This document shows, one piece after another, positions 12,073-29,998 of a DNA stretch of 64,000 bases; position 1 is the first letter of the stretch; every line of letters begins with the position of its first letter. Source of the DNA: Spirochaetales bacterium (GTDB lineage: Bacteria > Spirochaetota > Spirochaetia > JABEVK01); assembly GCA_037142615.1 (NCBI GenBank), contig JBAXAI010000011.1, forward strand, positions 1 to 64,000. The letters run 5' to 3'. The notes under the pieces are model-generated. The model was not told the DNA's origin. It worked only from the letters and a program-made list of their open reading frames with translations, and ran no database searches. Both the position numbers and the translations under genes were made by a program.

Positions 12073-13071
12073 CTAGTTAAGCATGACCTGCCCGCCCGTG
12101 ACGGGCAGCGCTTGGCCGGTTTCGTATTCCTGGTCGACAAGATAGCGGATAGCTTTGAGCACGTCGGGGCCGGTGCAGCCTCGGTTCATGGGCACCTTGG
12201 CTTCGTAGAAGGCTTTTACGTCGGCAAGGGTTTTGGCCCCGGGGACCTTGCCGGTTTTCAGGTATTGGGCGAACAGTCCGGTTTCGGGCGTGGACCACAG
12301 CGGGCCGTCGAAAAAGTTGCCCGGGCAGACCGAGTTGACCTTGATGCGGTGCGTGACCAGCTCGAGGGCGAAGCTTTGGGTGAGGCCGATGCCGCCGAAC
12401 TTGCTGCCCGCGTAGCTGCCATTTTTATTGCTGCCCTCGAGGCCGCTCTTGCTGTTGATCTGGATGACGTCGGTCCAACCGCTGGGGTTGCCCTCGGCCT
12501 GGCGCTTCATGACGGCAGCGCAATGTTTGACGCACAGCATGTAGCCGGTGTAGTTGACGCCCGTGACGAACTCCCAAGACTTGAGGTCTTGCTCGAGCAC
12601 CGAGAAGGCCTTGAGCACGCCGGCGTTGCTGACCAGCAGGTCGAGGCCGCCGCATTCGGCGACAATCGTCTCGACCATGGCCTGCACGCTGGGCTCGTCG
12701 GTGACGTTCACCTGCACGGCCAAGGTAACAGCCTTACCTGCCGCCTTGTTGAGTTCATCGGCCAGCTTTTGCGCGCCCGGAAGGTTCATGTCGGCGATCA
12801 CAACGAACGAGCCCTGGGCCACGAGCCCGCGGGTGATTTCCTCGCCAAAGCCCTGCGCGCCGCCGGTGACCAGCGCAATGCGGCCGTTCAGGCTGCTGTC
12901 GGCGGCAACGCTCTCGCTGGCGGTGAACCAGCCGGTGCCCGACAACATCAGTTCGGGCGCGATGCCGCTCGGGGCTACACCCGCATGAAACGTGAACCGC
13001 TGGCGTCGGCCGGCTTCGAGGGCTTTGCCGCGCAACAGCGGCGCGGTGGCCACAACGGGATCAATGGACAT
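12073..13071 (-). CDS. sorbitol-6-phosphate 2-dehydrogenase-like SDR (SrlD/SorD-like) with N-terminal extension
   Basis: TGGAQGFG, IQINSKSG, YAGSKFGGIGLTQS, VTGGQVM. Confidence 0.85.
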   Translation of the reverse strand: MSIDPVVATAPLLRGKALEAGRRQRFTFHAGVAPSGIAPELMLSGTGWFTASESVAADSSLNGRIALVTGGAQGFGEEITRGLVAQGSFVVIADMNLPGAQKLADELNKAAGKAVTLAVQVNVTDEPSVQAMVETIVAECGGLDLLVSNAGVLKAFSVLEQDLKSWEFVTGVNYTGYMLCVKHCAAVMKRQAEGNPSGWTDVIQINSKSGLEGSNKNGSYAGSKFGGIGLTQSFALELVTHRIKVNSVCPGNFFDGPLWSTPETGLFAQYLKTGKVPGAKTLADVKAFYEAKVPMNRGCTGPDVLKAIRYLVDQEYETGQALPVTGGQVMLN

Positions 13072-14359
13072 AGAGTTCCTCCGATTTGCGGTAGTAGGCA
13101 GAAAGGCGTTCACCCAGTGGCTTGCTCGCCAACGGGTTCTGCGGGTGAAACAGGCCCTGCTTGCCGTCCTGGGACGACAGCTTTTCGTGCGCGATGAGCG
13201 CCCACGTGCTGGCGTTGAGGTGCCGGAACTCGGGGCGCAGAATCTCGGGACACTGGAAGCTTTGGCGCGAGCTGTTGATGTCGACCCCCGAGATTTCCAT
13301 CAGCCCGTGGTGGGCACACAGTTTCTGCACGCGCAGCAGCTGTTCCACCGTGTTACGGGGCGGCATGTAGGTCACCGCTTGAAAGCCATACCCGGGCAGT
13401 TCGGCAAACAGCGCGTCGAGGTAGGCGTCCTCGAAGTGCTCGGCCTTTTTGTCGCCCGTGGGGCTTTCGCCCACGTCGCCGAGGTAGGCGTACGCGGGAA
13501 GGGCACCCAAGCTGCGGATGAACGCGGTAACCTCGCGCACGGGCAGGCATTCCGCGTCGGTCGGGTCGACAAACACCTGGTCGATGAGCGTGGTCTTGAG
13601 CAGGCCCACCAGGTCGTAGAAGGCGTGGGGGTTGGCGGTGTCGGTCAGCTGGGTGGCCACCTTGGCGGGCACCTTAACGCCGAGCTTAGTTTCGAGCAGC
13701 GAGACGAGCGAAGGCGACAGACCTGCCTGAGCGATCAACACGTTCGCCGCTCCGGCGAGCAGGTGGCGCTCGGTGACGCCACCGCCGCTTTTCAATTGGG
13801 TGAGCGGTTCCACGTCGCGGTCAAAATCGAGACCCTTGCCACTGGGGCCGGGAATGCCGGCCGCTACGAAAATCTTGCCGATCGCGGTTGCCATCTTGCG
13901 GGTCCGCTCGACGCGCACCGCGCGCAAGGGCTTCAGGTAGGCCTCCGCGTCGTCAATCCGGTTGGCCGGCACGCCGTGGGCCACGATATACGCGCGTCCC
14001 AGGCAATCGGGATAGTTGACCTTGCGCTCGCCGAAGGGCGTTCCTTTCAGGCTGACGCGCAGCTCGAAGCCGACGGTGGTGGCGATGCCCAGGATCTTGC
14101 CCGCCTCGAGCATTTCGCGCGCGGCGCCGATGCTGTCGTGGTCCACCGAACCCACGGCGTCCAGCCCTGCCTCGAAGGCCCGCAGCGCGGCCATCGAGGG
14201 CGTGTAGGGGCTAAAGCTGTAAATGGTGTGAACGTGGTTGTTCACCTCGCCCTCGCGCTTGCCGCGACGCAACTCGGGCGAGGCGGCGAAAGTTTTGAGT
14301 GCGGCGAGGCGGTCTGCGGGCGACTCGGTAGGGTTGTTGATCCGCTCGCGCAGCGTCAT
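13061..14359 (-). CDS. PHP-domain protein (putative sugar-phosphate phosphatase)
   Basis: NNHVHTIYS, VDHDS, GFELR metal-binding motifs. Confidence 0.8.
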   Translation of the reverse strand: MTLRERINNPTESPADRLAALKTFAASPELRRGKREGEVNNHVHTIYSFSPYTPSMAALRAFEAGLDAVGSVDHDSIGAAREMLEAGKILGIATTVGFELRVSLKGTPFGERKVNYPDCLGRAYIVAHGVPANRIDDAEAYLKPLRAVRVERTRKMATAIGKIFVAAGIPGPSGKGLDFDRDVEPLTQLKSGGGVTERHLLAGAANVLIAQAGLSPSLVSLLETKLGVKVPAKVATQLTDTANPHAFYDLVGLLKTTLIDQVFVDPTDAECLPVREVTAFIRSLGALPAYAYLGDVGESPTGDKKAEHFEDAYLDALFAELPGYGFQAVTYMPPRNTVEQLLRVQKLCAHHGLMEISGVDINSSRQSFQCPEILRPEFRHLNASTWALIAHEKLSSQDGKQGLFHPQNPLASKPLGERLSAYYRKSEELYVH

Positions 14360-18205: not shown

Positions 18206-19573
18206 TTACTGGGCCAACACTAAGTCAACTTCGGCGATGGCGTCGCTCAACGCCTTGAGGAACTTCGCGGCGGGGGCGCCGTCGACCACCATGTGGTTGA
18301 TGGTCAGCGACAGGCCCACACTGGGCAAAAACTCCACCCCGGCCTTGCCCTGCACGGGCTTAAGGCTGATGCCACCAACACCGAGGATGGCCACTTCGGG
18401 CACGTTGAGCACCGGCGTGAAGCTGTCGATGCCAAACGCGCCGACATTGCTCACGCTGAAGGTGCTGCCGGTCAGGTCGTCGGGCTTGATGGTGCTGTTG
18501 CGGCAAGCTTCGGCCAGACGCTTCGTCTCGTCGCTGATCTGCTTCAGGCTGAGGCTATCAGCGTTGCGGACGACGGGAACCATGAGACCGCGGGGGGTGT
18601 CACAAGCCACGCCGATGTGCACGTCGCCGAACTCAATGATGGTGTCGCCGACTTTGTGGGCGTTCATGTACCCAAAGCGCCGGAGCGTGCGGGCCGTGGC
18701 GAACACGATCAGGTCGCCAATGGTGACGCCCTGTAGGCCGAGGCTGGCGTCGCTGGCCTTGAGCCGGGCGCGCAGTTCCTGCAGGCGAACGGCGAGCGCG
18801 GTGGCGTTGAGCGTGAACTGCGCCGTTGTGCTCAGGCTCTCGGCCATCCGGTCGGCGATGACCTTGCGGATGCCCTTGATCTTGGTTTCGGTACGGCTGC
18901 CAGGAGCGCGGACAGGAGCAGCAGATGAACTTGGCGCCGCCGAAACTGCAGCTGGTGCATTGCCCACGTCGGCCGCGAGAACCCGGCCGCCCAGGCCGCT
19001 GCCACGGGCGGGGAGCGCCACACCGGCGGCGAGGGCCGCTTCGAGGGCAGCAGCGGTGGCCGGAGCCTTGGCGTCGAGCACCGCGCGCACGTCGCGTTCG
19101 ATCACGCGGCCTTCCGGGCCGGTGCCGGTCAGTGACGTGGCGTCCACACCCTGGGTAGCGGCCAGAAGCCGGGCACGGGGCGAGGAAAAAGAAGCTCCGG
19201 CGGCGGCGATGGAGGACGCTGACGCCGGAGCGGAAGGAGCCGTGGGAGAGGCGACCGACACAGCGGCCGTGGGAGCAGCCGAACCGGTAGCGGGGCTGCC
19301 GCCCGAGGTGGCCAGCAGCGTGGCGATGTCCTCGCCAGGCGTGCCGATGATGGCGATGGGCAACATGACGGGCACGTCGTCGCCGGCGTTACGGACCTGC
19401 TTCAAGATGGTGCCGGCGAAACCGGCTTCGACTTCGAAGGACGCCTTGTCGGTCTCGACGTCGGCCACGATGGTCTTGGCGGTCACTGCATCGCCCTCTT
19501 TCACGCGCCAGGCGATCAGAAGGCACGATTCAACGCTGTTCCCCTGCCGGGGCATGACCAGAACTTCTGCCAT
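18206..19573 (-). CDS. dihydrolipoamide acyltransferase (E2)
   Basis: Lipoyl motif VETDKA, two E3-binding-like segments, catalytic NHMVVDG; ATG 19573. Confidence 0.92.
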   Translation of the reverse strand: MAEVLVMPRQGNSVESCLLIAWRVKEGDAVTAKTIVADVETDKASFEVEAGFAGTILKQVRNAGDDVPVMLPIAIIGTPGEDIATLLATSGGSPATGSAAPTAAVSVASPTAPSAPASASSIAAAGASFSSPRARLLAATQGVDATSLTGTGPEGRVIERDVRAVLDAKAPATAAALEAALAAGVALPARGSGLGGRVLAADVGNAPAAVSAAPSSSAAPVRAPGSRTETKIKGIRKVIADRMAESLSTTAQFTLNATALAVRLQELRARLKASDASLGLQGVTIGDLIVFATARTLRRFGYMNAHKVGDTIIEFGDVHIGVACDTPRGLMVPVVRNADSLSLKQISDETKRLAEACRNSTIKPDDLTGSTFSVSNVGAFGIDSFTPVLNVPEVAILGVGGISLKPVQGKAGVEFLPSVGLSLTINHMVVDGAPAAKFLKALSDAIAEVDLVLAQ

Positions 19574-19588
19574 AGGTCTTCCTTTATG

Positions 19589-19641
19589 GTTTCGAAATGC
19601 TTTCGATTGGCTTACGATATACCTTCCCCTGAATTTTGACA
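19589..19641 (-). promoter_or_regulatory. sigma70-like promoter with three 11-bp-spaced CG(A/T)AA(G/C) repeats (putative DeoR operator)
   Basis: Minus strand TTGTCA...TATATCGT, then CGTAAG/CGAAAG/CGAAAC at 19611-16, 19600-05, 19589-94. Confidence 0.55.
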
Positions 19642-19687
19642 AGAGGAAATTGTCTCTGGGCACGAAAAGTGTCTGCGGATTCACTCA

Positions 19688-19726
19688 ACCTGCCAAATCT
19701 GGACTCGACATCCAGATTTGGCAGGT
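19688..19726. repeat. perfect 16-bp inverted repeat, 7-nt loop
   Basis: ACCTGCCAAATCTGGA-ctcgaca-TCCAGATTTGGCAGGT. Confidence 0.85.
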
Positions 19727-19832
19727 AGCTGCACCTTGAGGAGAATTGGGAGGATTTTGGTTTGGCGCATTCGGTCCTGGTTGCGAGACGCATAACGCAC
19801 CGAGAAACGTATTGGCCAGAGGTCGGGCCACG

Positions 19833-20818
19833 TCAGTCTGCAGCTTGACCCTCGGCGTAGATTTGCTTCTGGAACCTTTGCCGAAAATCCGCAAGCGAGT
19901 AGATGCTTTCCTCGAACAGGCCGTACCCCATGAAGTTGGAGGTGGCGATCCTGATTTCAGCTTTGTGACCTAGGGGGAAATATTCCAGGTCTTCCAGTTT
20001 AGCTAGTTGTTTCTCCAAGATGGAAGATCTAGGGTGCAGGTTCGCAAGTAGCAAGATGAACTCGGGCTTGTCCTCGCTGAACCCAGCGAACCCCTGCGGG
20101 GCGTCGATCAGACTGAGTTCAACCTTCTGCCGAAAGATTGAGACTAACTCTTCCTTGAGGTTTCGAACGGCGGCTTTATCAGCCAGGAACTTGTTGAGGT
20201 CCCGTACATGGTCGACAATTCCCGACTTTCCTTCCTGCAAAGCATCCTTTCCAAACTTCAGCTCCATCAGAGCCAACCTAAGTCCGCTGGTCTTCCTTCT
20301 TGCGTTTGACGTGGATGGCCACTTCACACCCGCCAAATCATACCGCGCCTTACCCTTAACGTACTCGGTATCGCAGATATAGTAGTCCGTGTTCTGACCT
20401 GCGTATTTCTTCGCGTCAGCGTCTTTCTTCGGCTTCGTGCCCCTGTTGTTCTCACGGACAATGAGCTGCTGGCATTCCTTTTCTCGGTTATCACGGATTT
20501 CTGTGAAGTAGAAGTCAATCGTCGACTTGATGAGTGGAATTACCTTAACCCAGCCTGCAACCGCGTCGGGCGTGCCAACCTTCCCAGGCCGAGGCATCCA
20601 GGAAGGCACGAGTTCTCCCTCGAAGTAGTTGCCCGTGTGTTGGAAGCGATAGCCATCGAGCTCCGAAATCTCCAGAAGACTCCCCCCCGGTAATAAATCG
20701 TTACTTGGTTTTCCCGAATCTCCAGATTCAGTGTTGAGTCTTTCTGCACGTACTCCAAGATTGGTTGAAGCACGCCGCCTTTAAGGGCCTCCATAAATGT
20801 CTCACTCAGCTTTCGCAT
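19833..20818 (-). pseudogene. PD-(D/E)XK-like nuclease-fold protein, frameshifted at G7 tract
   Basis: ORFs 20540-20818 and 19833-20609 join (YYRGG-SLLEI...VPSWMPRP) if one G is added at 20682-20688; DTEY...RYDLAGV...LMELKFG motif. Confidence 0.7.
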
Positions 20819-20852
20819 GGTTCACTCCTCGAAAATTGAATCCCTGTTAAGT

Positions 20853-22472
20853 CTAGGCAGATTGCCTCATGAAGGCTACCTGATAGGCCAGCAAACTGTA
20901 GGCGAGGCTATGGCTTTTCATGAACGGTCGCCCTCCGGCCTGGACGAGGCGTTCCCAAACGGGAAGGGCAATATCCACGGCAAAGCCATTCGTGACCGCG
21001 GCTTCGACGAAGTTTGCCTTGGCTGGCTCTAGTGTCGCCGGGACTTGACGGAAAAGGACCCTACGAAGCGTCTCTGCCTCAGCCACGCCCAGCGCTGTCA
21101 GGTGCGCGACGATCTGGAGGACTTGCTCTTGGTAGACAAGAACGCCCCGAGTGCTATCGAGGATTGGAGCCAGCGGATCAGGCGTCTCATCGGGTGATGC
21201 GAGGCTTTTCGGTGCGTCGCAGTAGGCCGAAAAGGCTTCGTCGCCACCGGGTCGACACAGAGCATACACCACAGACAGCTCATCCAGAGTCCTGGGCTGC
21301 ACCTGCCGCAGCCACGCCCTGATTTTCGGAGACTCGAAGCCGAACACGCCTTCGGTTTCGCCATTCGCAAATGCGTTCCAAGTCGCTTGGTCATCCAAAG
21401 GGACCCCAGCCTGTGGTACGTCATCCAGTGCATCGAGGCCGAGAAGGTCGAACTTGATCAACCCGTGCAACTCAAGATCCTGGAAAGCACACTGAGGGAC
21501 CAAGCCTTCATGGGTGGGGTCCCAGAAGGATGCGAACTGGTCACTCAGGGGCCACGCAGAAACAATCACACCGCACCCGTGACAGGCGACATCGGCGACT
21601 CGATCGCGACCCCAGCGCTCTTTGAGATAGGCGACCACTTCGGTCCTTCTAGCCGCGCTCACATCAACATCGATATCGGGGACCACTGAGACACCAGGGT
21701 TGAAGAATCGCTCAAACAGCAACCCGTGGGCGAGAGGGTCGACGGCTGTAATCTTCAGGGCGTAGGCCACCATCGAGCCGGGTGTCGTACCGCGACCGGG
21801 CCCGACCGCAATTCCTTGGCTTCGTGCCCAAGCCAGCATGTCGGCCCAGATGAGCAGGTAGCTCGCCCAACCTCGGACGCAGAGTCCTGCCAATTCAATT
21901 TCAGCCCGCTGCTGAATCTCAGGAGTGACCACCTGGAACCGTTCGGCGAGTCCCAACTGCACAAGCTGGCGCAAGTACTGCTCGGTGGTCCCCACAAACC
22001 CGGGGGGAGGGAGAAACTCCGGCAACTGGATTTTCGGTTGGAGGACCTCCCAGAGGTAGCGCCGGGCCAACTCCTCGACGGTCTGCGGTGACAGGCCCTC
22101 ACTTGTGGTATTTCGCAGGATCACCAAATCGTCGTCTGCGAGCCCCAACTCGTCTTTCGTCAGATGCCGCTCGGACCTCGGATGGCGGGCGAAGTGGGTC
22201 GAAAGCTGCTGAAGGCGGCGGAACCCGGCCTCAGAGTGGACAAGCACCAACGACGTTGTGGGGTCGTCGGGCCCGGTGATCGGGAACTCGCAACCGATGA
22301 GGGGCAAAATGCCGTGCTGTTGGCAGGTGACCACGAACCGTCTGACACCGAACAAGGTGCCCTTGCCGAGGAGTGCGAGGGCTCTCAGACCGTGGGCCTT
22401 CCCGGCGGCGACGAACGGTGGAATCTCCCTGGACCCTTTGTTGACGGAGCTCAAACAGAGTGTGGGTTGCAT
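20853..22472 (-). CDS. miniature DnaE-like (C-family polymerase) protein, 539 aa
   Basis: GPGRGTTPGS, LLFERFFNP, PDIDVD, KFDLLGL, GVFGFES, LVYQEQ, FMKSHSLAY; AAGGAG RBS before ATG 22472. Confidence 0.85.
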   Translation of the reverse strand: MQPTLCLSSVNKGSREIPPFVAAGKAHGLRALALLGKGTLFGVRRFVVTCQQHGILPLIGCEFPITGPDDPTTSLVLVHSEAGFRRLQQLSTHFARHPRSERHLTKDELGLADDDLVILRNTTSEGLSPQTVEELARRYLWEVLQPKIQLPEFLPPPGFVGTTEQYLRQLVQLGLAERFQVVTPEIQQRAEIELAGLCVRGWASYLLIWADMLAWARSQGIAVGPGRGTTPGSMVAYALKITAVDPLAHGLLFERFFNPGVSVVPDIDVDVSAARRTEVVAYLKERWGRDRVADVACHGCGVIVSAWPLSDQFASFWDPTHEGLVPQCAFQDLELHGLIKFDLLGLDALDDVPQAGVPLDDQATWNAFANGETEGVFGFESPKIRAWLRQVQPRTLDELSVVYALCRPGGDEAFSAYCDAPKSLASPDETPDPLAPILDSTRGVLVYQEQVLQIVAHLTALGVAEAETLRRVLFRQVPATLEPAKANFVEAAVTNGFAVDIALPVWERLVQAGGRPFMKSHSLAYSLLAYQVAFMRQSA

Positions 22473-23710
22473 GAGGGTACTTCTCCTTTTTCGAACACGA
22501 TGGGGTCGCCGTCTCGGCAGTTCAAAACCGGAACCCCGAACTGATGGAACCGCCCAGGAGCTTCGGTGTGGATGGGAAGCAAACTCCTCGGCTGCAGCCC
22601 CTGAACGAGGGCCGCCAAAGTTGCGACGTCGGCGTGGCCGCTGGTATGGGCCATTTCGGGGGCAACCCCACGAGAGCCGAGGAAGTCGATCAGAGGCTTT
22701 GTGGAGGGCTCTTCGAGATACCCGGCCCACTGCGACCACAAGAACAACGAACGGGGCCCCACCTCGAGTTTCTGTAATTCCGCGAGCATATTGGGCCTGA
22801 CAAGGACGAGGTAACGGCCGGGGTGAGACTGGAGGTTCTGCATTCGAGTTTTGAATTTCGCCCAGCGCCCAACCCGGGACATCGTGACGTGCCGGAGCGC
22901 CCACGCGGTCAAGCGGCGTGGAAACCAAACACCGAGACCGGGAAACCTGGGAGCCGGAACTGGCAGAGCCGCAAACTCGGCCGCCACGCGCAACACTTCA
23001 GCGGCATACACGTCGATGACAAAGGTTCGGCCGCTGTGGCGTGCGGCCTTGTAGAGCGTCACCATCCGATCGAGGTTTTGGGCTGAGCAGGCCACCAGGG
23101 CAAGCCCCGAGGTGGTACGGAGGCGGTCGTAAATCTGCTCCTCGAGTTCCGTTTCCAAGAGGTTCTGCCCCGTAACCCGCCCAAGCCCCGTGCCCTCCAT
23201 CAGCAAGGCGTCGACGGCTTGCGGAGGCTTGTCCAGCAAGCGCTGGAAAAGTTTGCCCTTGCGTCCGTTACGCCGAAAATCGCCCGAGTAGAAGAGGCGA
23301 GTTCCGCCGGCTTCGACCAGAAACGCATACGAGTCAAAGGCAGAATGGTCCATCGGGAACGGTGTGACGGTGAAAGGGCCGATCGCAAACGGCCGCTGGT
23401 CCGTGAAAGTTGTCCACGTGTCGAGGCTCAACTCGGTCAACCCGAACTCTCGGTTCAAGCGGATCAGGCGGGCGGTGGCTTCGCTGCAGAAGACCGGTGC
23501 CGCAGGGCTCAGGGTGGCCAACAGCCCAAAGTGGTCCGCGTGGGCATGGCTGATCAGAACGGCGTCAAAAGCCGTCCCCACCAAGGCAGGAATCGAGTTG
23601 TAACCCGCAAGCGGCAGACCGCAATCCACGAGAATCCGGGAGTCGCCCTGCCGAAGTTCGACGCACGAGCCGCCTATCTGATGGGTACCGCGATGGATAG
23701 TTACAGTCAT
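22451..23710 (-). CDS. MBL-fold beta-CASP hydrolase, RNase J-like
   Basis: IGGSC, SHAHADH, DHSAFD, YSGDFR, LMEGT, HTSGHA, PIHTE. Confidence 0.9.
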   Translation of the reverse strand: MTVTIHRGTHQIGGSCVELRQGDSRILVDCGLPLAGYNSIPALVGTAFDAVLISHAHADHFGLLATLSPAAPVFCSEATARLIRLNREFGLTELSLDTWTTFTDQRPFAIGPFTVTPFPMDHSAFDSYAFLVEAGGTRLFYSGDFRRNGRKGKLFQRLLDKPPQAVDALLMEGTGLGRVTGQNLLETELEEQIYDRLRTTSGLALVACSAQNLDRMVTLYKAARHSGRTFVIDVYAAEVLRVAAEFAALPVPAPRFPGLGVWFPRRLTAWALRHVTMSRVGRWAKFKTRMQNLQSHPGRYLVLVRPNMLAELQKLEVGPRSLFLWSQWAGYLEEPSTKPLIDFLGSRGVAPEMAHTSGHADVATLAALVQGLQPRSLLPIHTEAPGRFHQFGVPVLNCRDGDPIVFEKGEVPSCNPHSV

Positions 23711-23719
23711 CTTGGCGCG

Positions 23720-23747
23720 ACTGTACCACGGAACGTGCAGTTGTCAA
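23720..23747 (-). promoter_or_regulatory. sigma70 promoter, near-leaderless transcript
   Basis: TTGACA-16 nt-TACAGT with extended TG, 9 nt upstream of ATG 23710; no SD. Confidence 0.6.
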
Positions 23748-23776
23748 GCTTTGGCGGGAAATCCGAAAATCTCCCC

Positions 23777-24532
23777 CTACACCAACCTGACGTCGAGCCC
23801 CAGTTCCTGCAACGCCGGGATCTGAGCGGCGGGAAAGTCGGTGTCGGTGATGAGCAGGTCGATCTTTTTGAGCGGCATGATCGACACAAAACCCGAGCGG
23901 CCGAACTTTGACGAGTCGACCACCAGGATGCGCTTTTCGGCCTGTTCGGCCATGGTCTTCACCATTTCGGCGCCCTCGACGAGGTGGGTGGTCAGGCCCT
24001 TTTCGAGCGTGAAGCCGTCGGTGCCCAAAAAGGCGAGTTTGACGTTGAAGCGGCGGATGGTGTCGAGCGCCAGGGGGCCGACAAACGACTCGTTGGCGCT
24101 GCGGAACTCGCCGCCCACCATGGTCACCTGCAGCGACGGGTTGGCACGCACGTAGGGCAGCACCAGCGTCGAGTCTGTCACCAGGTGGATGTGCCCCTTG
24201 CCCAGCAGATACTTCACCACCAGCGCCGTCGTGGTTCCGGCCACCAGCATGACGGTGTCGCCGTCGTTCACCAGGTCGGCTGCCGCCTTGGCAATGCGGT
24301 TCTTTTCGTCCACACGGTAGCTTTGCCGCTCGAGAACGCTGCGGTGAAAGGCCAGGTGGGCCCCCCCGTGCGAGCGCACGATGACGCCCCGCGAGGCGAG
24401 ATCCTTCAGGTCGGCCCGGACGGTGACATCCGACACCGCGAGAAGCTTGCCCAGTTCGGTGACCGACACGTTGGGCTGTTCGGTGAGCGTCTGGAGAATA
24501 AGCTTTTCGCGGGCGGTCAGGCTTTCGAGCAT
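23777..24532 (-). CDS. DeoR/GlpR family transcriptional regulator
   Basis: VSDVTVRADL HTH, RSHGGA, EKNRIAKAA, AGTTT, DSSKFG. Confidence 0.93.
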   Translation of the reverse strand: MLESLTAREKLILQTLTEQPNVSVTELGKLLAVSDVTVRADLKDLASRGVIVRSHGGAHLAFHRSVLERQSYRVDEKNRIAKAAADLVNDGDTVMLVAGTTTALVVKYLLGKGHIHLVTDSTLVLPYVRANPSLQVTMVGGEFRSANESFVGPLALDTIRRFNVKLAFLGTDGFTLEKGLTTHLVEGAEMVKTMAEQAEKRILVVDSSKFGRSGFVSIMPLKKIDLLITDTDFPAAQIPALQELGLDVRLV

Positions 24533-24609
24533 GGCCCTAGTATACGCAAACCGGGTTGCCATGGAACCCCCGCTTGCCCGGGCGCCCTCGGTTCCACTAT
24601 GTTGGGAAC

Positions 24610-25827
24610 ATGCAAAGTTACCTGGACCGACTGAATCAACTCTGGAAGTTCGACGACCTGTTCAGCTTCGGAGACCACTGGGAGAGCCTGGCCGTGTGGG
24701 CCACGGCCCTGGTTGCGGTGGGTGTGCTGGCCTACGCGCTGGGCTGGATTGTCCGCGCTGTCATCGGCGGGCTCATTGCTGGTCTGGCCCGCAAGACCGA
24801 GACCAAGTGGGACGACTACCTGTTCGACAAGAAGTTCTTCCATCGTTTGGGCAACCTGATTCCTTCGGTCGCGAGCTACTTTTTGTTCCTGTCCATCGTC
24901 GCCCCGGGAAAAGTCGGCACGCTCGACGGCGCGCTGTACCCTTTGGTGACCAAGGTGCTTCTGTTGTGGATCTGCTGGGCAGCGACCTCGTTCTTCGTGC
25001 AACTCTCGACCAACTGGGAACGGGGCTACCGCGAGGTAAGGGGTGTACGCCAGATACCGATGCGCAGCTATGTGCAGGTGGTGCAACTATTTGTGTACAT
25101 GCTGGGCGGGGTTCTCGCTGTCTCGGTTGTGCTCGACCAAAACCCGTTGGGTATTCTCGGCGGTTTGGGCGCCATGACTGCGGTGCTGCTGCTCGTGTTC
25201 AAGGACACGCTCCTGGGCCTTGTGGCCTCGCTGCAGGTAAGTTCGAACAAGCTGGTGCAAGTCGGCGACCGGGTGGAGTTTCCGAGCCTGAACATCGAGG
25301 GCGAAGTGGTCGACATCGCGCTGAGCGTGGTCAAAATCAAGAGCGGTGACAACACGGTGTATTCGATGCCCACGTACAACCTGGTCTCGCTGCCGTTCAA
25401 AAACTGGAGCCATGTGGCCGACGTGGGGGCCCGCCGCCTAAAGCTGGCGTTTCCCGTCGATGCGCTCACCATTGCCCCCCTCGCCTCTGGGCAGGAAAAA
25501 GCCCTGCGGACCACCGGCCTGTGGAAAGTCCCCGAGGACCTCAAGGGCGTAAGCAACGCCGAAGCGTTCCGGTTCTGGTGTCAGGATTATCTGGACGGCC
25601 ACGCGCAAGTGCACAAGGGCGAGGCCCGCTTGGTCAAACTGGGGCAACCGGTCGGCCGCGGCCTGCCCTTCGAAATGGTCTTTTATACCCAACTCACCAC
25701 CTACCCCGACTGGGAGCACCTGAGTTCGCGCCTGCTCAGCCAGTTCCTGGCAACCCTACCCGAGTTCGGACTGCGGGTGTTTCAGGAGCCTGTGGGCGTG
25801 GTTTCGGCCCCAGCGGTGGCGACTTAG
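24610..25827 (+). CDS. small-conductance mechanosensitive channel (YbdG/MscM-like)
   Basis: LGAMTAVLLLVFKDTLLGLVASLQ, VGDRVE, FKNWS. Confidence 0.9.
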   Translation: MQSYLDRLNQLWKFDDLFSFGDHWESLAVWATALVAVGVLAYALGWIVRAVIGGLIAGLARKTETKWDDYLFDKKFFHRLGNLIPSVASYFLFLSIVAPGKVGTLDGALYPLVTKVLLLWICWAATSFFVQLSTNWERGYREVRGVRQIPMRSYVQVVQLFVYMLGGVLAVSVVLDQNPLGILGGLGAMTAVLLLVFKDTLLGLVASLQVSSNKLVQVGDRVEFPSLNIEGEVVDIALSVVKIKSGDNTVYSMPTYNLVSLPFKNWSHVADVGARRLKLAFPVDALTIAPLASGQEKALRTTGLWKVPEDLKGVSNAEAFRFWCQDYLDGHAQVHKGEARLVKLGQPVGRGLPFEMVFYTQLTTYPDWEHLSSRLLSQFLATLPEFGLRVFQEPVGVVSAPAVAT

Positions 25828-26774
25828 CTCAAACTGACCGCGTTGAACACGTAGCCCGTTATCATGATTCCCAAAGAAACCACGGCGATGAAGGCCCCGA
25901 GCAACCGCGGCTTGAGCACCTTTCGCAAAATGACGAACTCGGGGAACGACAACGCGGTGACGGCCATCATGAAGGCAAGCGCCGTACCCAGCGGCACGCC
26001 TTTTTCAAACAGCGCGCTGATGATGGGAATGATGCCGGCCGCGTTGGAATACAGCGGAACCCCCAGCAAAGTCGCCAGCGGGACCGAATACCATTGGCCC
26101 TTGCCCAGATACTGCACAAAGAAGTCTTCGGGCACGTACCCGTGGATAAACGCCCCGATGGCGATGGCCACCAACACGTAAAGCCATACCTTGTAAAGAA
26201 TATCGGTCGTCTCACCCCAGGCGGTTTTGGCGCGTTCCTTCCAGGAGGGTTTCACTTCGGCCAGTGAGGGGCCTTCTTTGCCAAACACAAACCCCTCCAC
26301 GCTCGACTCCAGCTTCAGGGCTCCGATCACCAGGCCGGCGACAATAGCGATGAGCAGGCCGGTGCCGATGTAGATCAGCGCGATCTTCCAGCCAAACAAC
26401 CCCGCCAGCATCACCAGCGCCACCTCGTTGATCATCGGCGAGGCGATCAGGAACGAAAAGGTCACCCCCAGTGGAATGCCGCCGCGCACAAACCCGATGA
26501 ACAGGGGTACCGCCGAGCACGAACAAAAGGGCGTCACGATTCCCAGGAGCGCTGCCAGCACGTTGCCGACGCCGGGTGGCAGTTTCGAGATCAGTCGCTT
26601 GGTCGTCTCCACGGGAAAGAACGTGCGCAAAAACGAAATGACAAAAATGATGGTAACCAGAAGCAAGAAGATCTTGCCGGTGTCGTAGATGAAAAACTCC
26701 AGCACGGCCCCCAGCGGCCCCTGGGGCACAGCCAGCACCGTGTAGACCCACCACGCGATGTAGGTTTCGATCAT
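25824..26774 (-). CDS. ArsP/UPF0718-type permease
   Basis: FFIYDTGKI, TPFCSCSAVP, SPMINE, GTALAFMMAV. Confidence 0.88.
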   Translation of the reverse strand: MIETYIAWWVYTVLAVPQGPLGAVLEFFIYDTGKIFLLLVTIIFVISFLRTFFPVETTKRLISKLPPGVGNVLAALLGIVTPFCSCSAVPLFIGFVRGGIPLGVTFSFLIASPMINEVALVMLAGLFGWKIALIYIGTGLLIAIVAGLVIGALKLESSVEGFVFGKEGPSLAEVKPSWKERAKTAWGETTDILYKVWLYVLVAIAIGAFIHGYVPEDFFVQYLGKGQWYSVPLATLLGVPLYSNAAGIIPIISALFEKGVPLGTALAFMMAVTALSFPEFVILRKVLKPRLLGAFIAVVSLGIMITGYVFNAVSLS

Positions 26775-26776
26775 CG

Positions 26777-27010
26777 CTAAACCGCGAGCAGGGCTTTCAC
26801 CTGGTCCTTGGTGAGCACCTTGCCCGACGACCGGATGACGCCGTTGACGCCGAGCGCCGGCGTGGTCATCACGCCCATGGCTGCGATGGTACCAAAGTCG
26901 CTGATCTTTTCGACGCTCGCCGAAAGACCCAGTTCGGCGATAGCCTCGCGGGTGGTCTTTTCGAGCAGGTTGCACTTGGCGCAGCCGCTCCCCAGAATCT
27001 GAATGGTCAT
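26777..27010 (-). CDS. small thioredoxin-like redox-active disulfide protein (MTH895-like)
   Basis: ILGSGCAKC, GVMTTPAL. Confidence 0.9.
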   Translation of the reverse strand: MTIQILGSGCAKCNLLEKTTREAIAELGLSASVEKISDFGTIAAMGVMTTPALGVNGVIRSSGKVLTKDQVKALLAV

Positions 27011-27022
27011 GGCGGTCTCCTA

Positions 27023-27044
27023 TAGTTTCCATTATAGGAAACTA
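27023..27044. promoter_or_regulatory. inverted repeat operator upstream of thioredoxin/permease operon
   Basis: TAGTTTCC-attata-GGAAACTA. Confidence 0.6.
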
Positions 27045-27103
27045 AGAGCGGACGTCAAGGTCTGGCAAAGTTAACCGGGGGGAACTATGCTTGACCGCAT
27101 ATC

Positions 27104-29998
27104 ATGGCAAAGGCACCAAAAAAGAAACCCGTTCGAACCGAAGTTGCCGACCTGCTGGTAGTCGGAATCGGAGCCTCCGCCGGGGGCCTCGAGGCCCTGC
27201 AGGAGTTCTTCAAGGCCGTTCCTCTCGACACGGGGCTGGCCTTCGTCGTCATCCAGCACCTGTCACCCGACTACAAAAGCCTGATGGACGAGCTGCTGGC
27301 ACGGCAGACCAAACTCAAGATCCTGGTCATCGAAGACTCCATGCCGCTCGAGCCGAACACCATTTTCCTGATTCCACCGCGTAAGGACCTGTCGATTTTT
27401 CACGACAAACTGATCTTGCAGGAACAGAGCCTCAAGCGCGGGCTGCATCTGCCGGTCGATGTGTTTTTCGCGTCGCTGGCCGCCGAAAAGGGCAAAAACG
27501 CCATTGGCATCATCCTTTCGGGCACGGGCAGCGATGGCACTTTGGGCACCCGCGCCATCAAGGAAGCCGGCGGCATGGTGATGGTGCAAGACGAAAAAAC
27601 CGCCAAGTTCGACGGCATGCCGCGTTCGTCGATCTCCACCGGCTTGGTCGACTACATCTTGCCGCCGAACCAAATGCCCGAGGCTCTGGTCACCTACGTG
27701 CACCACCCCTTTGTGCAAAAAGGCACCAGCCTCGAAAACACCCTCGCCCAGAACTTCGATCCGCTGAGCAAGATCATGCTGCTGCTGCGCGACCACAGCG
27801 GCATCGACTTTTCGTACTACAAAGAAAACACCGTCATCCGCCGCCTGGAACGCCGCGTGAGCATCAACCGCTTCGACACGCTCGACGAGTACCTGGTGTA
27901 CCTGGCTGACTCTGACAAAGAGAAAAGCAGCCTTTTCCGCGAAATGCTCATCGGCGTGACCCGGTTCTTCCGCGATACCGAGGCCTTCGACGCTCTGCAA
28001 AAAAAGGTGTTCCCGCTGTTGGCGCACAAGCGCCATTTACGCATCTGGTCGGCGGGGTGCTCCACCGGCGAGGAGGTGTACTCGCTGGCCATTCTGGTGC
28101 TGTCGTATCTGGAGCAGAACAAACTCACCTGCGAAGTCACGATCTTTGCCACCGATGTCGATCGCCATTCCCTCGAAGTGGCGGGGCGAGGCTTCTACGC
28201 CGACAGCGTCGTGGCCGACGTCGATCCGGCCCTCATGAACCGCTACTTCCACAAACAGGAAGACGGCTACCAGGTCACCGAGGCCGTGAGGCGGATGATC
28301 GTGTTTGCCTCCCACAACGTGCTCAAGGATCCGCCGTTTTCCAAACTCGACCTGTTGGTCTGCCGCAACCTGTTCATCTACTTCAAGCCCGAGCTGCAGA
28401 CTCGGCTCTTGAGCTCGTTTTATCACAGCCTGTCGCCCGAGGGCTTCCTGTTCATGGGCTCTTCCGAAAGCCTGGGCGAGGTTTCCGAAGGCTTCGAGCC
28501 CCTCGATTCGAAGTGGAAGATCTACCGGTACCGTCCCGGCTTCCAGGTTTCGCTCGCCAAGACGTTGCCGCTCACGGTGTCGGTGGACGAGACCGAGTCC
28601 AGGCTGACGGGCGCGAGGCAAAAGGAATTGGCGCGGTGGGACCACATGATGAGCCAAGTGCTCTCGCTGTACCTGCCTCCGTCGGTGGTGGTCGATGCCC
28701 AAGACCAGGTGCTGCAGACCATCAACGACATGAGCCGTTTCCTCAAAATCCCGAGCGGTCGATTCTCGCAGAACCTGTATGACCTGTTGCCCCACGAACT
28801 GGGACTCCTCGTCAGCTCGTTGCTTCGCAAAATCAAAAAAAGCGGCGAGAGCTTCTTGCTCGAAAACCTGGTCGGCATCAAAGGCTTCGAAGGCGAACTT
28901 CTGAGCCTCCAGGGCCATGTGCTCAGCTCCGACCGGTCCACCTACTACTTGCTGTGCTTCCGCACCAACGCCGCGACCGCCGCTGTTGCGACCGACGTTT
29001 CGCCTCCGCAGGAAGTCAACCAACTGTACGCCGGGCGGGTCGGCGACCTCGAAAGGGAGTTGCAATTTACCCGCGAAAGTCTTCAGGCGACCGTCGAAGA
29101 GCTCGAAACCTCGAATGAGGAGCTCCAGTCGAGCAACGAAGAGCTGATTGCCAGCAACGAGGAACTTCAGAGCACCAACGAAGAGCTCCAGTCGGTGAAC
29201 GAGGAGCTGTACACCGTCAACACCGAGTTCCAGAACAAGATCGAGGAACTGACCACCCTCAACAACGACGAAGTGAACCTGCTGCGCAACACCGAAATCG
29301 GTGCCCTCTACCTCGACCACCGCCTGTGCATTCGCAAGCTCACGCCGCGGGTGACCGAAATCACGCGCATTGTGGCCGCCGATGAAGGGCGCCCGCTCGA
29401 CCACCTTTCGGCACTGCCGGGCTATCCTCAGCTGATCGAAGACATTCACGCGGTAAGCGACACGCTGCGGCCTCTCGACCGGGAAATCGTCGGCGTTGAC
29501 AAAAAAACCTACTTGGCCAGCATCCGGCCGTTTCGCACGGGGTTCAACTCGATTGAGGGCATTCTGGTCACCTTTGTCGAAATTACCAAACTCAAGCAGG
29601 CGCAGGAGTTGGCCTCGCAGGCGCGCCACCGGCTCGAAGACGCGCTCCGCATGGGGCAGATGGCCTGGTGGGAATGGGACTACCAAACCGGCGAAGTGCG
29701 TTATGACCCGCTGAAAGCCACGATGATCGGCTACACCGTAGACGAGTTCCCGCATCACGTCGATGACGTGTGTGCCCTGATTCACCCCGAGGATTACGAC
29801 AAGACCATGGAGGCGATGACCGATCACCTGCGGGGCAAAACCGACCTGTGGGAAGTGAGCTACCGCATCCGGCGCAAGGACGGAGACTACGCCGTGTACT
29901 ACGATCGGGGGACCATTTCCGAGCGGGATGCTGCCGGCAAGCCTTTGCGCTTGGTCGGCACCGTCATCCGGATGCGCGAAGGGCTGTACCGTGGGTGA
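27104..29998 (+). CDS. CheB/CheR fusion protein with PAS domains
   Basis: GASAGG/QH/SGTGSDG CheB triad; [10 protein letters not shown] CheR; EELQS.NEEL coiled coil; C-terminal PAS. Confidence 0.93.

Follow-up and report, generated by a model that had tools for sequence, protein, structure and literature searches.

A gene on the reverse strand of a 64,000-nt stretch of Spirochaetales DNA (positions 1 to 64,000 of contig JBAXAI010000011.1, assembly GCA_037142615.1; hereafter the window) encodes a 539-amino-acid (aa) homologue of the DNA polymerase III alpha subunit, here called mini-DnaE, which retains the palm with its three catalytic aspartates together with the index and middle fingers, and has lost the thumb, over half of the PHP domain and all clamp- and tau-binding parts. 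It is the middle one of three co-directional genes, preceded by a gene for a beta-CASP metallo-beta-lactamase-fold (MBL) nuclease and followed by a gene for a PD-(D/E)xK-like protein. On balance, comparison of the sequences leads us to favour the reading that mini-DnaE is an active nucleotidyltransferase working with these partner nucleases; it probably acts alongside them and not in chromosome replication.

A polymerase core without thumb or clamp-binding parts

The longest open reading frame (ORF) at this locus extends from 20853 to 22928 (691 aa, TTG start), its initial 152 codons sharing their DNA, in a different frame, with the upstream MBL gene. Translation most probably begins at the ATG at 22472, because this codon is preceded at 8-14 nt by the sequence AAAGGAG and because the orthologue described below (P0003) begins at the equivalent position. 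Both observations bear out the 539-aa product with a good ribosome-binding site that had been proposed from the sequence before this analysis (the original prediction).

Pfam places the PHP domain on residues 9-107 (profile positions 9-109 of 164), DNA_pol3_alpha on residues 165-296 (profile 1-133 of 260) and on a second short stretch (profile 210-260), and the finger domain on residues 355-496 (profile 23-166 of 166); DNA_pol3_alpha profile positions 134-209 find no match in the protein. The same segment is missing in alignments with solved polymerases: residues 131-300 and 294-536 correspond to 261-436 and 508-776 of E. coli Pol III alpha, and residues 141-300 and 291-536 to 291-449 and 530-796 of M. 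tuberculosis DnaE1, leaving E. coli residues ~437-507 and M. tuberculosis residues 450-529 without a counterpart. We take the thumb of the E. coli structure 2hnh to span residues 433-510, so that the excised segment would be the whole thumb. The PHP domain is short by ~145 residues (query 65 to 141, as against 70 to 291 in M. tuberculosis), forming a stub of ~130 residues where a full PHP domain has ~270-290, and LCLSS and LLGKG stand at the metal-ligand positions in place of HxHxH and TDHG. At the other end, the chain stops 3 residues past its last aligned position (E. coli ~776), and the ring and little fingers, the HhH/beta-binding domain, the clamp motif, the OB fold and the tau-binding end are all absent, with no HHH_6 or OB match in the Pfam scan of the protein. 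A QLPEF sequence at residues 149-153 is not kept in P0003 (LSLPHF).

The motifs that are present comprise PDIDVD (D266, D268), KFDLLGL (D342), GPGRG, FERF, YQEQ, RR (470-471) and KSH (519-521). The three aspartates and GPGRG match the motifs of the E. coli, T. aquaticus and M. tuberculosis enzymes and are invariant in our alignments A1 and A4. An AlphaFold2 model built on a 61-row alignment was confident throughout (pLDDT 91.7, pTM 0.90, no region with pLDDT <50), and superimposed on both E. coli 2hnh and the T. aquaticus ternary complex 3e0d with a query-normalised TM-score of 0.85. Alignment and structure prediction together therefore map the missing domains as the original prediction had drawn them, namely an intact active site, a shortened PHP domain without its metal ligands, no thumb, and no clamp-binding, HhH, OB or tau-binding parts.

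Comparison with known DnaE forms

The C-family polymerases known so far are either replicases (DnaE1, DnaE3, PolC) or, in the case of DnaE2, a subunit of the mutasome, and to our knowledge every described form keeps the thumb and the HhH/clamp region. The assembly that contains the window (96.7% complete) carries two further PF07733 loci, whose frames of 1248 aa and 1103 aa both cover the whole profile. In a tree, the 1167-aa protein encoded by the former groups with the DnaE1 of the phylum, and the latter we regard as DnaE2-like given its length and its position as outgroup.

By its sequence, mini-DnaE is a DnaE1-type homologue that fails most of the defining features of the replicase, and those of DnaE2 as well. 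Its top NCBIfam model is PRK05673, at 362.4 bits against a cut-off of 1002; TIGR00594 gives 344.9 against 434.35 and the DnaE2 model NF004225 218.3 bits against 939. A phmmer comparison with M. tuberculosis DnaE1 (5lew) gives an E-value of 2e-74. It shares with the DnaE1 enzymes of E. coli (2hnh, 4jom), T. aquaticus (2hpi, 3e0d) and M. tuberculosis (5lew) the palm with three aspartates, GPGRG, YQEQ, RR and KSH, and differs from them in its length (539 aa as against ~1150-1220), its halved PHP domain, its missing thumb and its place on an island beside nucleases. Of the features that define DnaE1, the palm and GPGRG are thus found, whereas the thumb, the full PHP domain, the HhH, clamp, OB and tau parts and a score above the NCBIfam cut-off are not. 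With DnaE2 (ImuC, of the ImuA-ImuB-DnaE2 cassette) it has in common that it is a non-essential extra paralogue with an inactive PHP site in an accessory operon, but DnaE2 retains thumb, HhH and OB at ~1000-1100 aa. A Pfam scan of the neighbours yielded no ImuA- or ImuB-like gene; the genes beside mini-DnaE are those of the MBL nuclease and the PD-(D/E)xK-like protein, and its score lies below the DnaE2 cut-off.

Reduced thumb and PHP domains have been reported for Thermotogae DnaE3, PolC and Bacteroidetes DnaE2 (Timinskas et al. 2014, PMC3919608); in the portion of that survey available to us, only the thumb helix-loop-helix (T. aquaticus 513-552) is lost in these enzymes and HhH and clamp parts are kept, unlike in mini-DnaE. 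The C-terminal truncations described in the same portion fall after the OB domain or remove OB and the C-terminal domain, none of them losing HhH or the whole thumb. Fragments were taken out of that survey set, and a 2026 survey that recognises four C-family groups likewise discarded truncated sequences (PMC12926913, again from the part available); as far as these portions describe their sampling, both surveys would have missed a form such as mini-DnaE because truncated sequences or fragments were dropped. Neither a thumb-less or HhH-less DnaE nor a DnaE-MBL-WYL operon was described in the literature searched, which included few subscription journals and had the supplements of the surveys outside its scope.

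The truncated gene is maintained

Among 5.8 billion clustered proteins, mini-DnaE has a sole orthologue, P0003 (540 aa), which is identical at 341/536 positions (64%) with 0 gaps, and HMMER, run in full against 1.84 billion representatives, gave nothing further above 41% identity. Identity between the two is even along the chain (0.58 in the PHP stub, 0.68 and 0.66 in the two palm segments and 0.63 in the fingers). At 102 alignment columns where conservation among 58 canonical DnaEs reaches 90% or more, 74 residues are kept in both mini-DnaE members and 7 are changed in one of them; the kept positions include D266, D268, D342, K340, GPGRG, R255, YQEQ, RR and KSH.

Sequencing evidence came from three studies, in the Logan contigs of four metagenome runs (X1, X2, X3 and X7) from freshwater or lakes. 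In X1, X2 and X3 (two studies), pieces of the gene are identical to the window, and in X7 (the third study) they are variants, 93-99% similar. The X7 variant differs in 27 codons, 17 synonymously and 10 non-synonymously, over 362 covered codons, giving a rough ratio of non-synonymous to synonymous substitution rates (dN/dS) of 0.19, a value that is approximate given the low depth of the contigs and well away from 1; one of the synonymous changes (GAC>GAT) falls on the D342 codon. The junction at which the thumb is missing is crossed without differences by an X1 contig (21276-21713). It is also crossed by the metagenome contig L015, identical to the window over 21376-29108 and the only match in a metagenome contig search with the two-member alignment. 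The junction was in this way checked in contigs, two of which bridge it, although both may come from the window's own sample; an X7 contig (21372-21602) extends ~12 nt past the junction and falls short of our 31-nt bridging rule, and no contig from X2, X3 or X7 bridges the junction by 31 nt.

In the species genomes of GTDB, a pattern search with the two-member alignment returned 23 matches, 0 of them relatives. Among viral contigs (IMG/VR), 471 of 546 stretches are relatives; the best 80 are all at most 41% identical, and in those of the best 80 that span the junction the matched DNA is ~93-109 codons longer than the query stretch, from which we conclude that the thumb is present in them. A tblastn search of PLSDB hit 2252 records, all below 60% identity, and the 15 matches listed come in two pieces. 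In 40 relatives, matches outside the genome G000 likewise come in separate pieces, breaking near residue 295-300, and sit in open frames mostly of ~1000-1300 aa, that is, in ordinary DnaEs.

Mini-DnaE might in principle be a decaying remnant, or an assembly artefact, of a full-length dnaE, and the small size of the family, the frameshift in the third gene of the operon (see below) and the nature of the data, which are contigs rather than raw reads and whose junction-bridging members may share the window's sample, would all fit such an origin. The gap-free orthologue of equal size, the dN/dS of ~0.19 in a variant from a separate study, the compact and confident model and the recovery of identical or variant pieces from three studies argue against it, as does the DNA downstream, which holds no DnaE-like coding remnants and continues into an unrelated gene. 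We regard this explanation as largely refuted and very improbable. That mini-DnaE is neither decayed nor misassembled and is evolutionarily maintained is well supported by these comparisons, upholding the earlier claim that its trimming is not random decay: a homologue of the same architecture exists, selection is evident, 74/102 canonical positions are kept in both members and the predicted fold is confident.

The mini-DnaE operon

The stop of the MBL gene and the start of mini-DnaE overlap by 22 nt, and the two genes are probably co-transcribed, as predicted from their layout, and translationally coupled. A promoter-like site in front of the MBL gene (Table 1) is the best of 5 such sites in 19500-24000, where shuffled sequences average 1.0. 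The inverted repeat beyond the operon end has no T-run and hence was not scored by the terminator scan; it might serve to bind a protein or to terminate transcription without a T-tract.

In a 20-member alignment of the MBL family, H55, H57, D59, H60, H122, D144, E172, H355 and H381 are invariant. The protein accordingly has the HxHxDH motif, the further metal ligands and three invariant beta-CASP positions, which we take to be motifs A (acidic), B (His) and C (His). NCBIfam models for RNase J and aCPSF1 match weakly, under their cut-offs. Its orthologue P0271 is 72% identical. A predicted complex of mini-DnaE with the MBL nuclease gave an ipSAE of 0.00 twice, in runs made without controls, and speaks neither for nor against their association.

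The ORFs at 20540-20818 and 19833-20609, downstream of mini-DnaE, are one gene broken at a run of seven G. An X1 contig (19700-21273) has the identical 7 G at the frame change, and none of the contigs of X2, X3 and X7 covers the frameshift site (20522-20795); the tract might reflect an error of sequencing, a lesion that has become fixed, or on/off switching by strand slippage. The intact orthologue P0391 (328 aa) is 47% identical. The third protein matches no Pfam family. Across a 19-member alignment of its family D142, E144, D154, E181 and K183 (numbered as in the homologue from locus L058) are invariant, HSDR_N_2 and PDDEXK_9 each match 4/19 members weakly, and SduA_C is also touched weakly. 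The L058 homologue was modelled with a pLDDT of 90.5; Foldseek returned nothing below 1e-3 for this fold, and VIA-align of its residues 112-300 gave top Z-scores of 7.5 to 5, mostly to PD-(D/E)xK enzymes, among them XisH-like, Upx, NucS, restriction-enzyme, HamA and Can2 nuclease domains (Z at most 7.5). The invariant motif residues, the weak Pfam touches and the alignment of the homologue model are the grounds on which we call the third protein PD-(D/E)xK-like, an assignment for which the fold is suggestive only.

The orthologues of the three proteins (P0271, P0003 and P0391) are each recorded on a contig of 12,093 bp with identical sources, and probably share one contig.

An accessory island

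The operon is, judging by comparison with related genomes and by composition, on a horizontally acquired island of ~4.2 kb between a 2-oxoacid dehydrogenase E2 gene and a DeoR regulator gene. The homologous segments of these two flanks are 105, 67 and 105 bp apart in G002, G003 and G001, and 4.2-4.3 kb apart in the window, so that the site is empty in all three same-genus genomes having both flanks on one contig (3/3). GC content at third codon positions is 0.61-0.72 in the island genes, as against 0.78 in the E2 gene, 0.85 in the DeoR gene and 0.74-0.88 in most other long ORFs of the window. The island has no convincing flanking direct repeats or att-like sites, and Pfam detected no integrase in it.

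A widespread cassette of MBL nuclease and partner gene

The MBL family is large: at least 3972 proteins match at E <=1e-5 among 8000 candidates examined, from many phyla, and in the GTDB species genomes 582/599 pattern matches encode MBL relatives. We examined the neighbourhoods of the best 80 loci (L016-L095). A same-strand gene ends within 150 nt upstream of the MBL gene in 58 of them, and one starts within 150 nt downstream in 28. In 19/80 the adjoining gene, upstream in 15 and downstream in 4, belongs to the family of the window's third gene, and other partner families form clusters of 8, 6, 5 and 3. A small nameless gene abuts the MBL gene almost always, with at least 5 unrelated partner families filling that position. 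Partner and MBL gene constitute a widespread two-gene cassette, for whose partner neither Pfam nor PADLOC has a name.

In the surroundings of 12 cassettes we found BrnT/CopG, HipA and PIN toxin-antitoxin genes, Wadjet JetC/JetD-like genes, a group II intron, a transposase and T5orf172, and also UDG with a Y-family polymerase, an XPB-type helicase, MutS2 and plain housekeeping genes. PADLOC-DB v2.0.0 holds no family that matches the window's operon proteins at E up to 0.1, and none that matches any of 20 MBL members (0/20); of the 19 partner members, a single one matches HEC-02B (3.2e-4) and another PtuB (6e-3). MBL proteins that resemble DNA-uptake nucleases and pair with proteases have been described, in the part of the report available to us, as MBL-protease defence modules (PMC12799240). 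We considered such a module as an equivalent of the operon and rejected it, the arrangement described in that part being different.

Truncated DnaEs recur beside the same MBL family

Only one of the best 80 MBL loci, L017 (1585-8059 of a contig from a Spirochaetes metagenome-assembled genome), has a DnaE-like gene. The protein (785 aa) has full PHP, full pol3_alpha and fingers, and ends ~20 residues past the KSH helix; the gene order is 785-aa DnaE, WYL/WCX, a 249-aa partner, MBL and a 248-aa DnaB_C-like protein, the last of which hints at a link to replication or a mobile element. We rejected the possibility that this DnaE is a frameshifted full-length dnaE, the next ORF being the WYL/WCX protein. 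A second instance, G071, from the same phylum (L182:7885-13104, G071:C33), emerged from a phylum-wide search with P0020 (401 genomes). It comprises a 776-aa truncated DnaE, in an open frame of 777 aa, with full PHP, thumb and fingers, then a helix-turn-helix-WYL-WCX protein, a 240-aa protein and an MBL of 404 aa, which shares 32% identity with that of the window (E 3e-74); the operon is flanked by an IS66 fragment and a PIN gene, and the genome also holds a normal DnaE1 (1149-aa frame).

More DnaEs end at the same point, namely P0020, P0090 and P0022 (782 aa), P0004 (783 aa) and P0134 (670 aa). Those of 782-783 aa sit on contigs of 47-151 kb, and no orthologue of the 782-aa P0020 family was found in the 401 genomes of the phylum, where the best match (42% identical) is a full-length DnaE1. 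P0134 has lost most of the thumb together with its C-terminal part and has a nearly intact PHP domain, making it a second, independent-looking thumb-less and C-truncated DnaE. All of these proteins resemble mini-DnaE in ending ~10-25 residues past the KSH..AY helix; those of L017 and G071 share its link to one MBL family, in operons, the L017 protein has its FMKSHSLAY, and P0020 has its NPG..VVPDIDVD. They differ in keeping a full-size PHP domain and, in all but P0134, the thumb.

In a tree of palm and fingers (66 rows), the mini-DnaE pair sits on a long stem (1.0-1.3 changes per site) and joins the L017 DnaE with SH-aLRT 96. When either the pair or L017 is removed, the other falls beside c_P0160 with P0020/P0090 (support 85 for the mini-DnaE pair). 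From this tree, truncation of DnaE probably occurred more than once.

Proposed function and competing explanations

What we infer about catalysis, substrate, association with the nucleases and biological role is the following. The genome's own DnaE1 and its DnaE2-like gene would serve replication and mutagenesis, and mini-DnaE would act as a distributive, clamp-independent nucleotidyltransferase extending 3' ends or short gaps that are made or exposed by the partner nucleases, its chemistry being short-patch fill-in or tailing. The partner nucleases, or a special substrate, would supply the DNA grip lost with the thumb and HhH. The degenerate PHP stub would probably be retained for folding, the E. 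coli PHP domain reportedly having a structural role, and the module as a whole would have an accessory, conflict-type or damage-response function. A non-processive mode is predicted from established DnaE structure because the thumb and the HhH/beta-binding, OB and tau-binding parts are absent, and for the same reason no role in the replisome is expected. Shared departures from the canonical sequence (R->V261, Q->G/S378, the lysines of GKK and Y->R515 among them) would suggest an altered relationship to substrate or template.

Several observations weigh against an active enzyme in a dedicated module. At 21/102 canonical positions both members are altered, including NPER R->V261, VFQLES Q->G/S378, GKK->RQ/GQ at 475-476, Y->R515 and T->P326, and these shared changes, as far as can be read from the alignment, might put an end to ordinary primer-template synthesis. 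Very few members are known, namely two sequences plus strain variants, with no mini-DnaE in the 40 relatives, the GTDB species genomes (searched with family-specific patterns), IMG/VR or PLSDB. The third gene is frameshifted in the assembly, so the module may be crippled here, and the link between the three orthologous proteins comes from matching 12,093-bp contigs and sources rather than from an observed gene order. Beyond the operon itself, 79/80 MBL loci have no DnaE-like gene inside the flanks examined. The grouping of the mini-DnaE pair with L017 unites long branches, which calls for the usual warning about long-branch attraction, and the truncated DnaEs are scattered and form no single clade, those of G071 and P0134 lying near the phylum's own DnaE1; the association of DnaE with the MBL family may therefore have arisen several times or partly by chance.

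The altered positions lend themselves to another explanation, in which mini-DnaE is a pseudo-enzyme, that is, a non-polymerising regulator or scaffold that binds nucleotides or DNA ends, or a decoy for phage proteins that bind Pol III, and controls the neighbouring nuclease or nucleases. The duplex-binding thumb and HhH are gone together with the PHP active site, several of the 21 altered positions (Q378, K475/K476, Y515, N518) fall in finger motifs adjoining the active site, the stem branch is long, and the context is of the conflict type (an island, a variable partner family, toxin-antitoxin and Wadjet genes near some cassettes). Yet the three aspartates, GPGRG, FERF, YQEQ, RR and KSH survive this long branch in both members, and a scaffold needs none of them; one would expect a decoy to retain surface parts such as the sites for clamp, tau or epsilon, whereas the clamp and tau parts are deleted and the PHP domain is cut by over half. 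We consider the pseudo-enzyme somewhat unlikely.

The active nucleotidyltransferase could also belong to an accessory DNA-repair kit for end processing or gap filling in the damage response, on the logic of LigD in non-homologous end joining or of ImuABC. This alternative differs in biological role and not in chemistry, and the likelihood that we give it overlaps with that of the active enzyme. The beta-CASP enzymes include the DNA-repair 5' exonucleases SNM1/Artemis; some WYL proteins control damage responses, and WYL regulators stand beside both larger truncated DnaEs (L017 and G071); single cassettes adjoin UDG and a Y-family polymerase, an XPB-type helicase or MutS2. Set against these links are the patchy, strain-specific distribution of the operon (missing in 3 same-genus genomes, not found in 40 relatives), its island-like composition, the high variability of the partner family with unrelated partners in the same position, and the lack of any ligase or Ku-type gene in the operon by Pfam. 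Dedicated repair is, in our estimate, unlikely, and we lean weakly towards a role in conflict or defence, since the island is strain-specific, the partner varies, some cassettes have toxin-antitoxin and defence genes nearby, and a poly-G run interrupts the third gene. The remaining probability falls to readings other than an active enzyme, a non-catalytic subunit or a decayed or artefactual gene.

Our most specific proposal, that mini-DnaE is an active clamp-independent nucleotidyltransferase of an undescribed polymerase-nuclease immune or conflict module built on the cassette of PD-(D/E)xK-type partner and beta-CASP nuclease, is a tentative one. There is a possible functional analogy with AbiK and the DRT-type reverse transcriptases, which are template-independent or specialised polymerases of anti-phage systems: these too have a polymerase fold in an accessory island with effectors, but mini-DnaE belongs to a different polymerase superfamily. 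If the proposal is true, this would be the first case of a C-family replicative core taken over and pared down for a role outside replication, possibly one that needs no template, and the truncated DnaEs of 776-785 aa with WYL would be its less reduced relatives. The 539-aa core under selection would represent the minimal unit of the C-family fold kept by evolution, and offers a small, tractable protein for asking what palm and fingers do alone. The recurrence of truncated DnaE with the beta-CASP family and WYL points to an unrecognised accessory DNA-processing system, and we regard the module around mini-DnaE as a candidate new system.

Features of the window

The features of the operon and of its island are collected in Table 1.

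Table 1. Positions in the window of the mini-DnaE operon, its parts and its surroundings.
Feature	Position	Strand	Remarks
Mini-DnaE, 539 aa	20853..22472	-	PHP stub, residues 1 to ~130; palm, ~131-350, thumb-less; index and middle fingers, ~351-539
Codons of catalytic D266 and D268 (PDIDVD)	21669..21677	-	Equivalent to PDFDVD in E. coli and PDIDID in M. tuberculosis DnaE1; invariant in P0003
Codon of third catalytic aspartate, D342 (KFDLLGL)	21447..21449	-	Equivalent to KFDFLGL and KMDFLGL; invariant in the 61-sequence alignment A4
Thumb-deletion junction, codons 295-298 (V-A-C-H)	21579..21590	-	Placed by structure alignments; spanned by X1 contig
Beta-CASP metallo-beta-lactamase-fold nuclease, 419 aa	22451..23710	-	First gene of the operon; Pfam Lactamase_B_2 (8.9e-19) and RMMBL (6.6e-6)
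Third gene, 5' piece, ~46 meaningful codons	20540..20818	-	N-terminus matches P0391 and the homologues of L076, L086 and L058
Third gene, 3' piece, 282 codons, other frame	19833..20681	-	Bears the D..E / RxD / ExK motifs
Run of 7 G, frame change in third gene	20682..20688	-	Intact homologues read YYRGG(S/I/N) in frame
Promoter-like site, TTGACA-16-TACAGT with TG extension	23720..23747	-	10/12 consensus; consensus match only
Perfect 16-nt inverted repeat, 7-nt loop	19688..19726		Between operon end and start of the E2 gene, at the island edge
Accessory island, ~4.2 kb, with the three-gene operon	19625..23821		Absent from three same-genus genomes

Two other genes of the window were noted in passing. 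At 13061-14359, on the reverse strand, a 432-aa ORF at the end of the row of 2-oxoacid dehydrogenase genes has a weak PHP match (E 0.004) and also weakly matches 3',5'-nucleoside bisphosphate phosphatase (3e-5); it looks unrelated to the island. On the forward strand, 27104-29998 encodes a 964-aa fusion of a CheB methylesterase and a CheR methyltransferase with two PAS domains.

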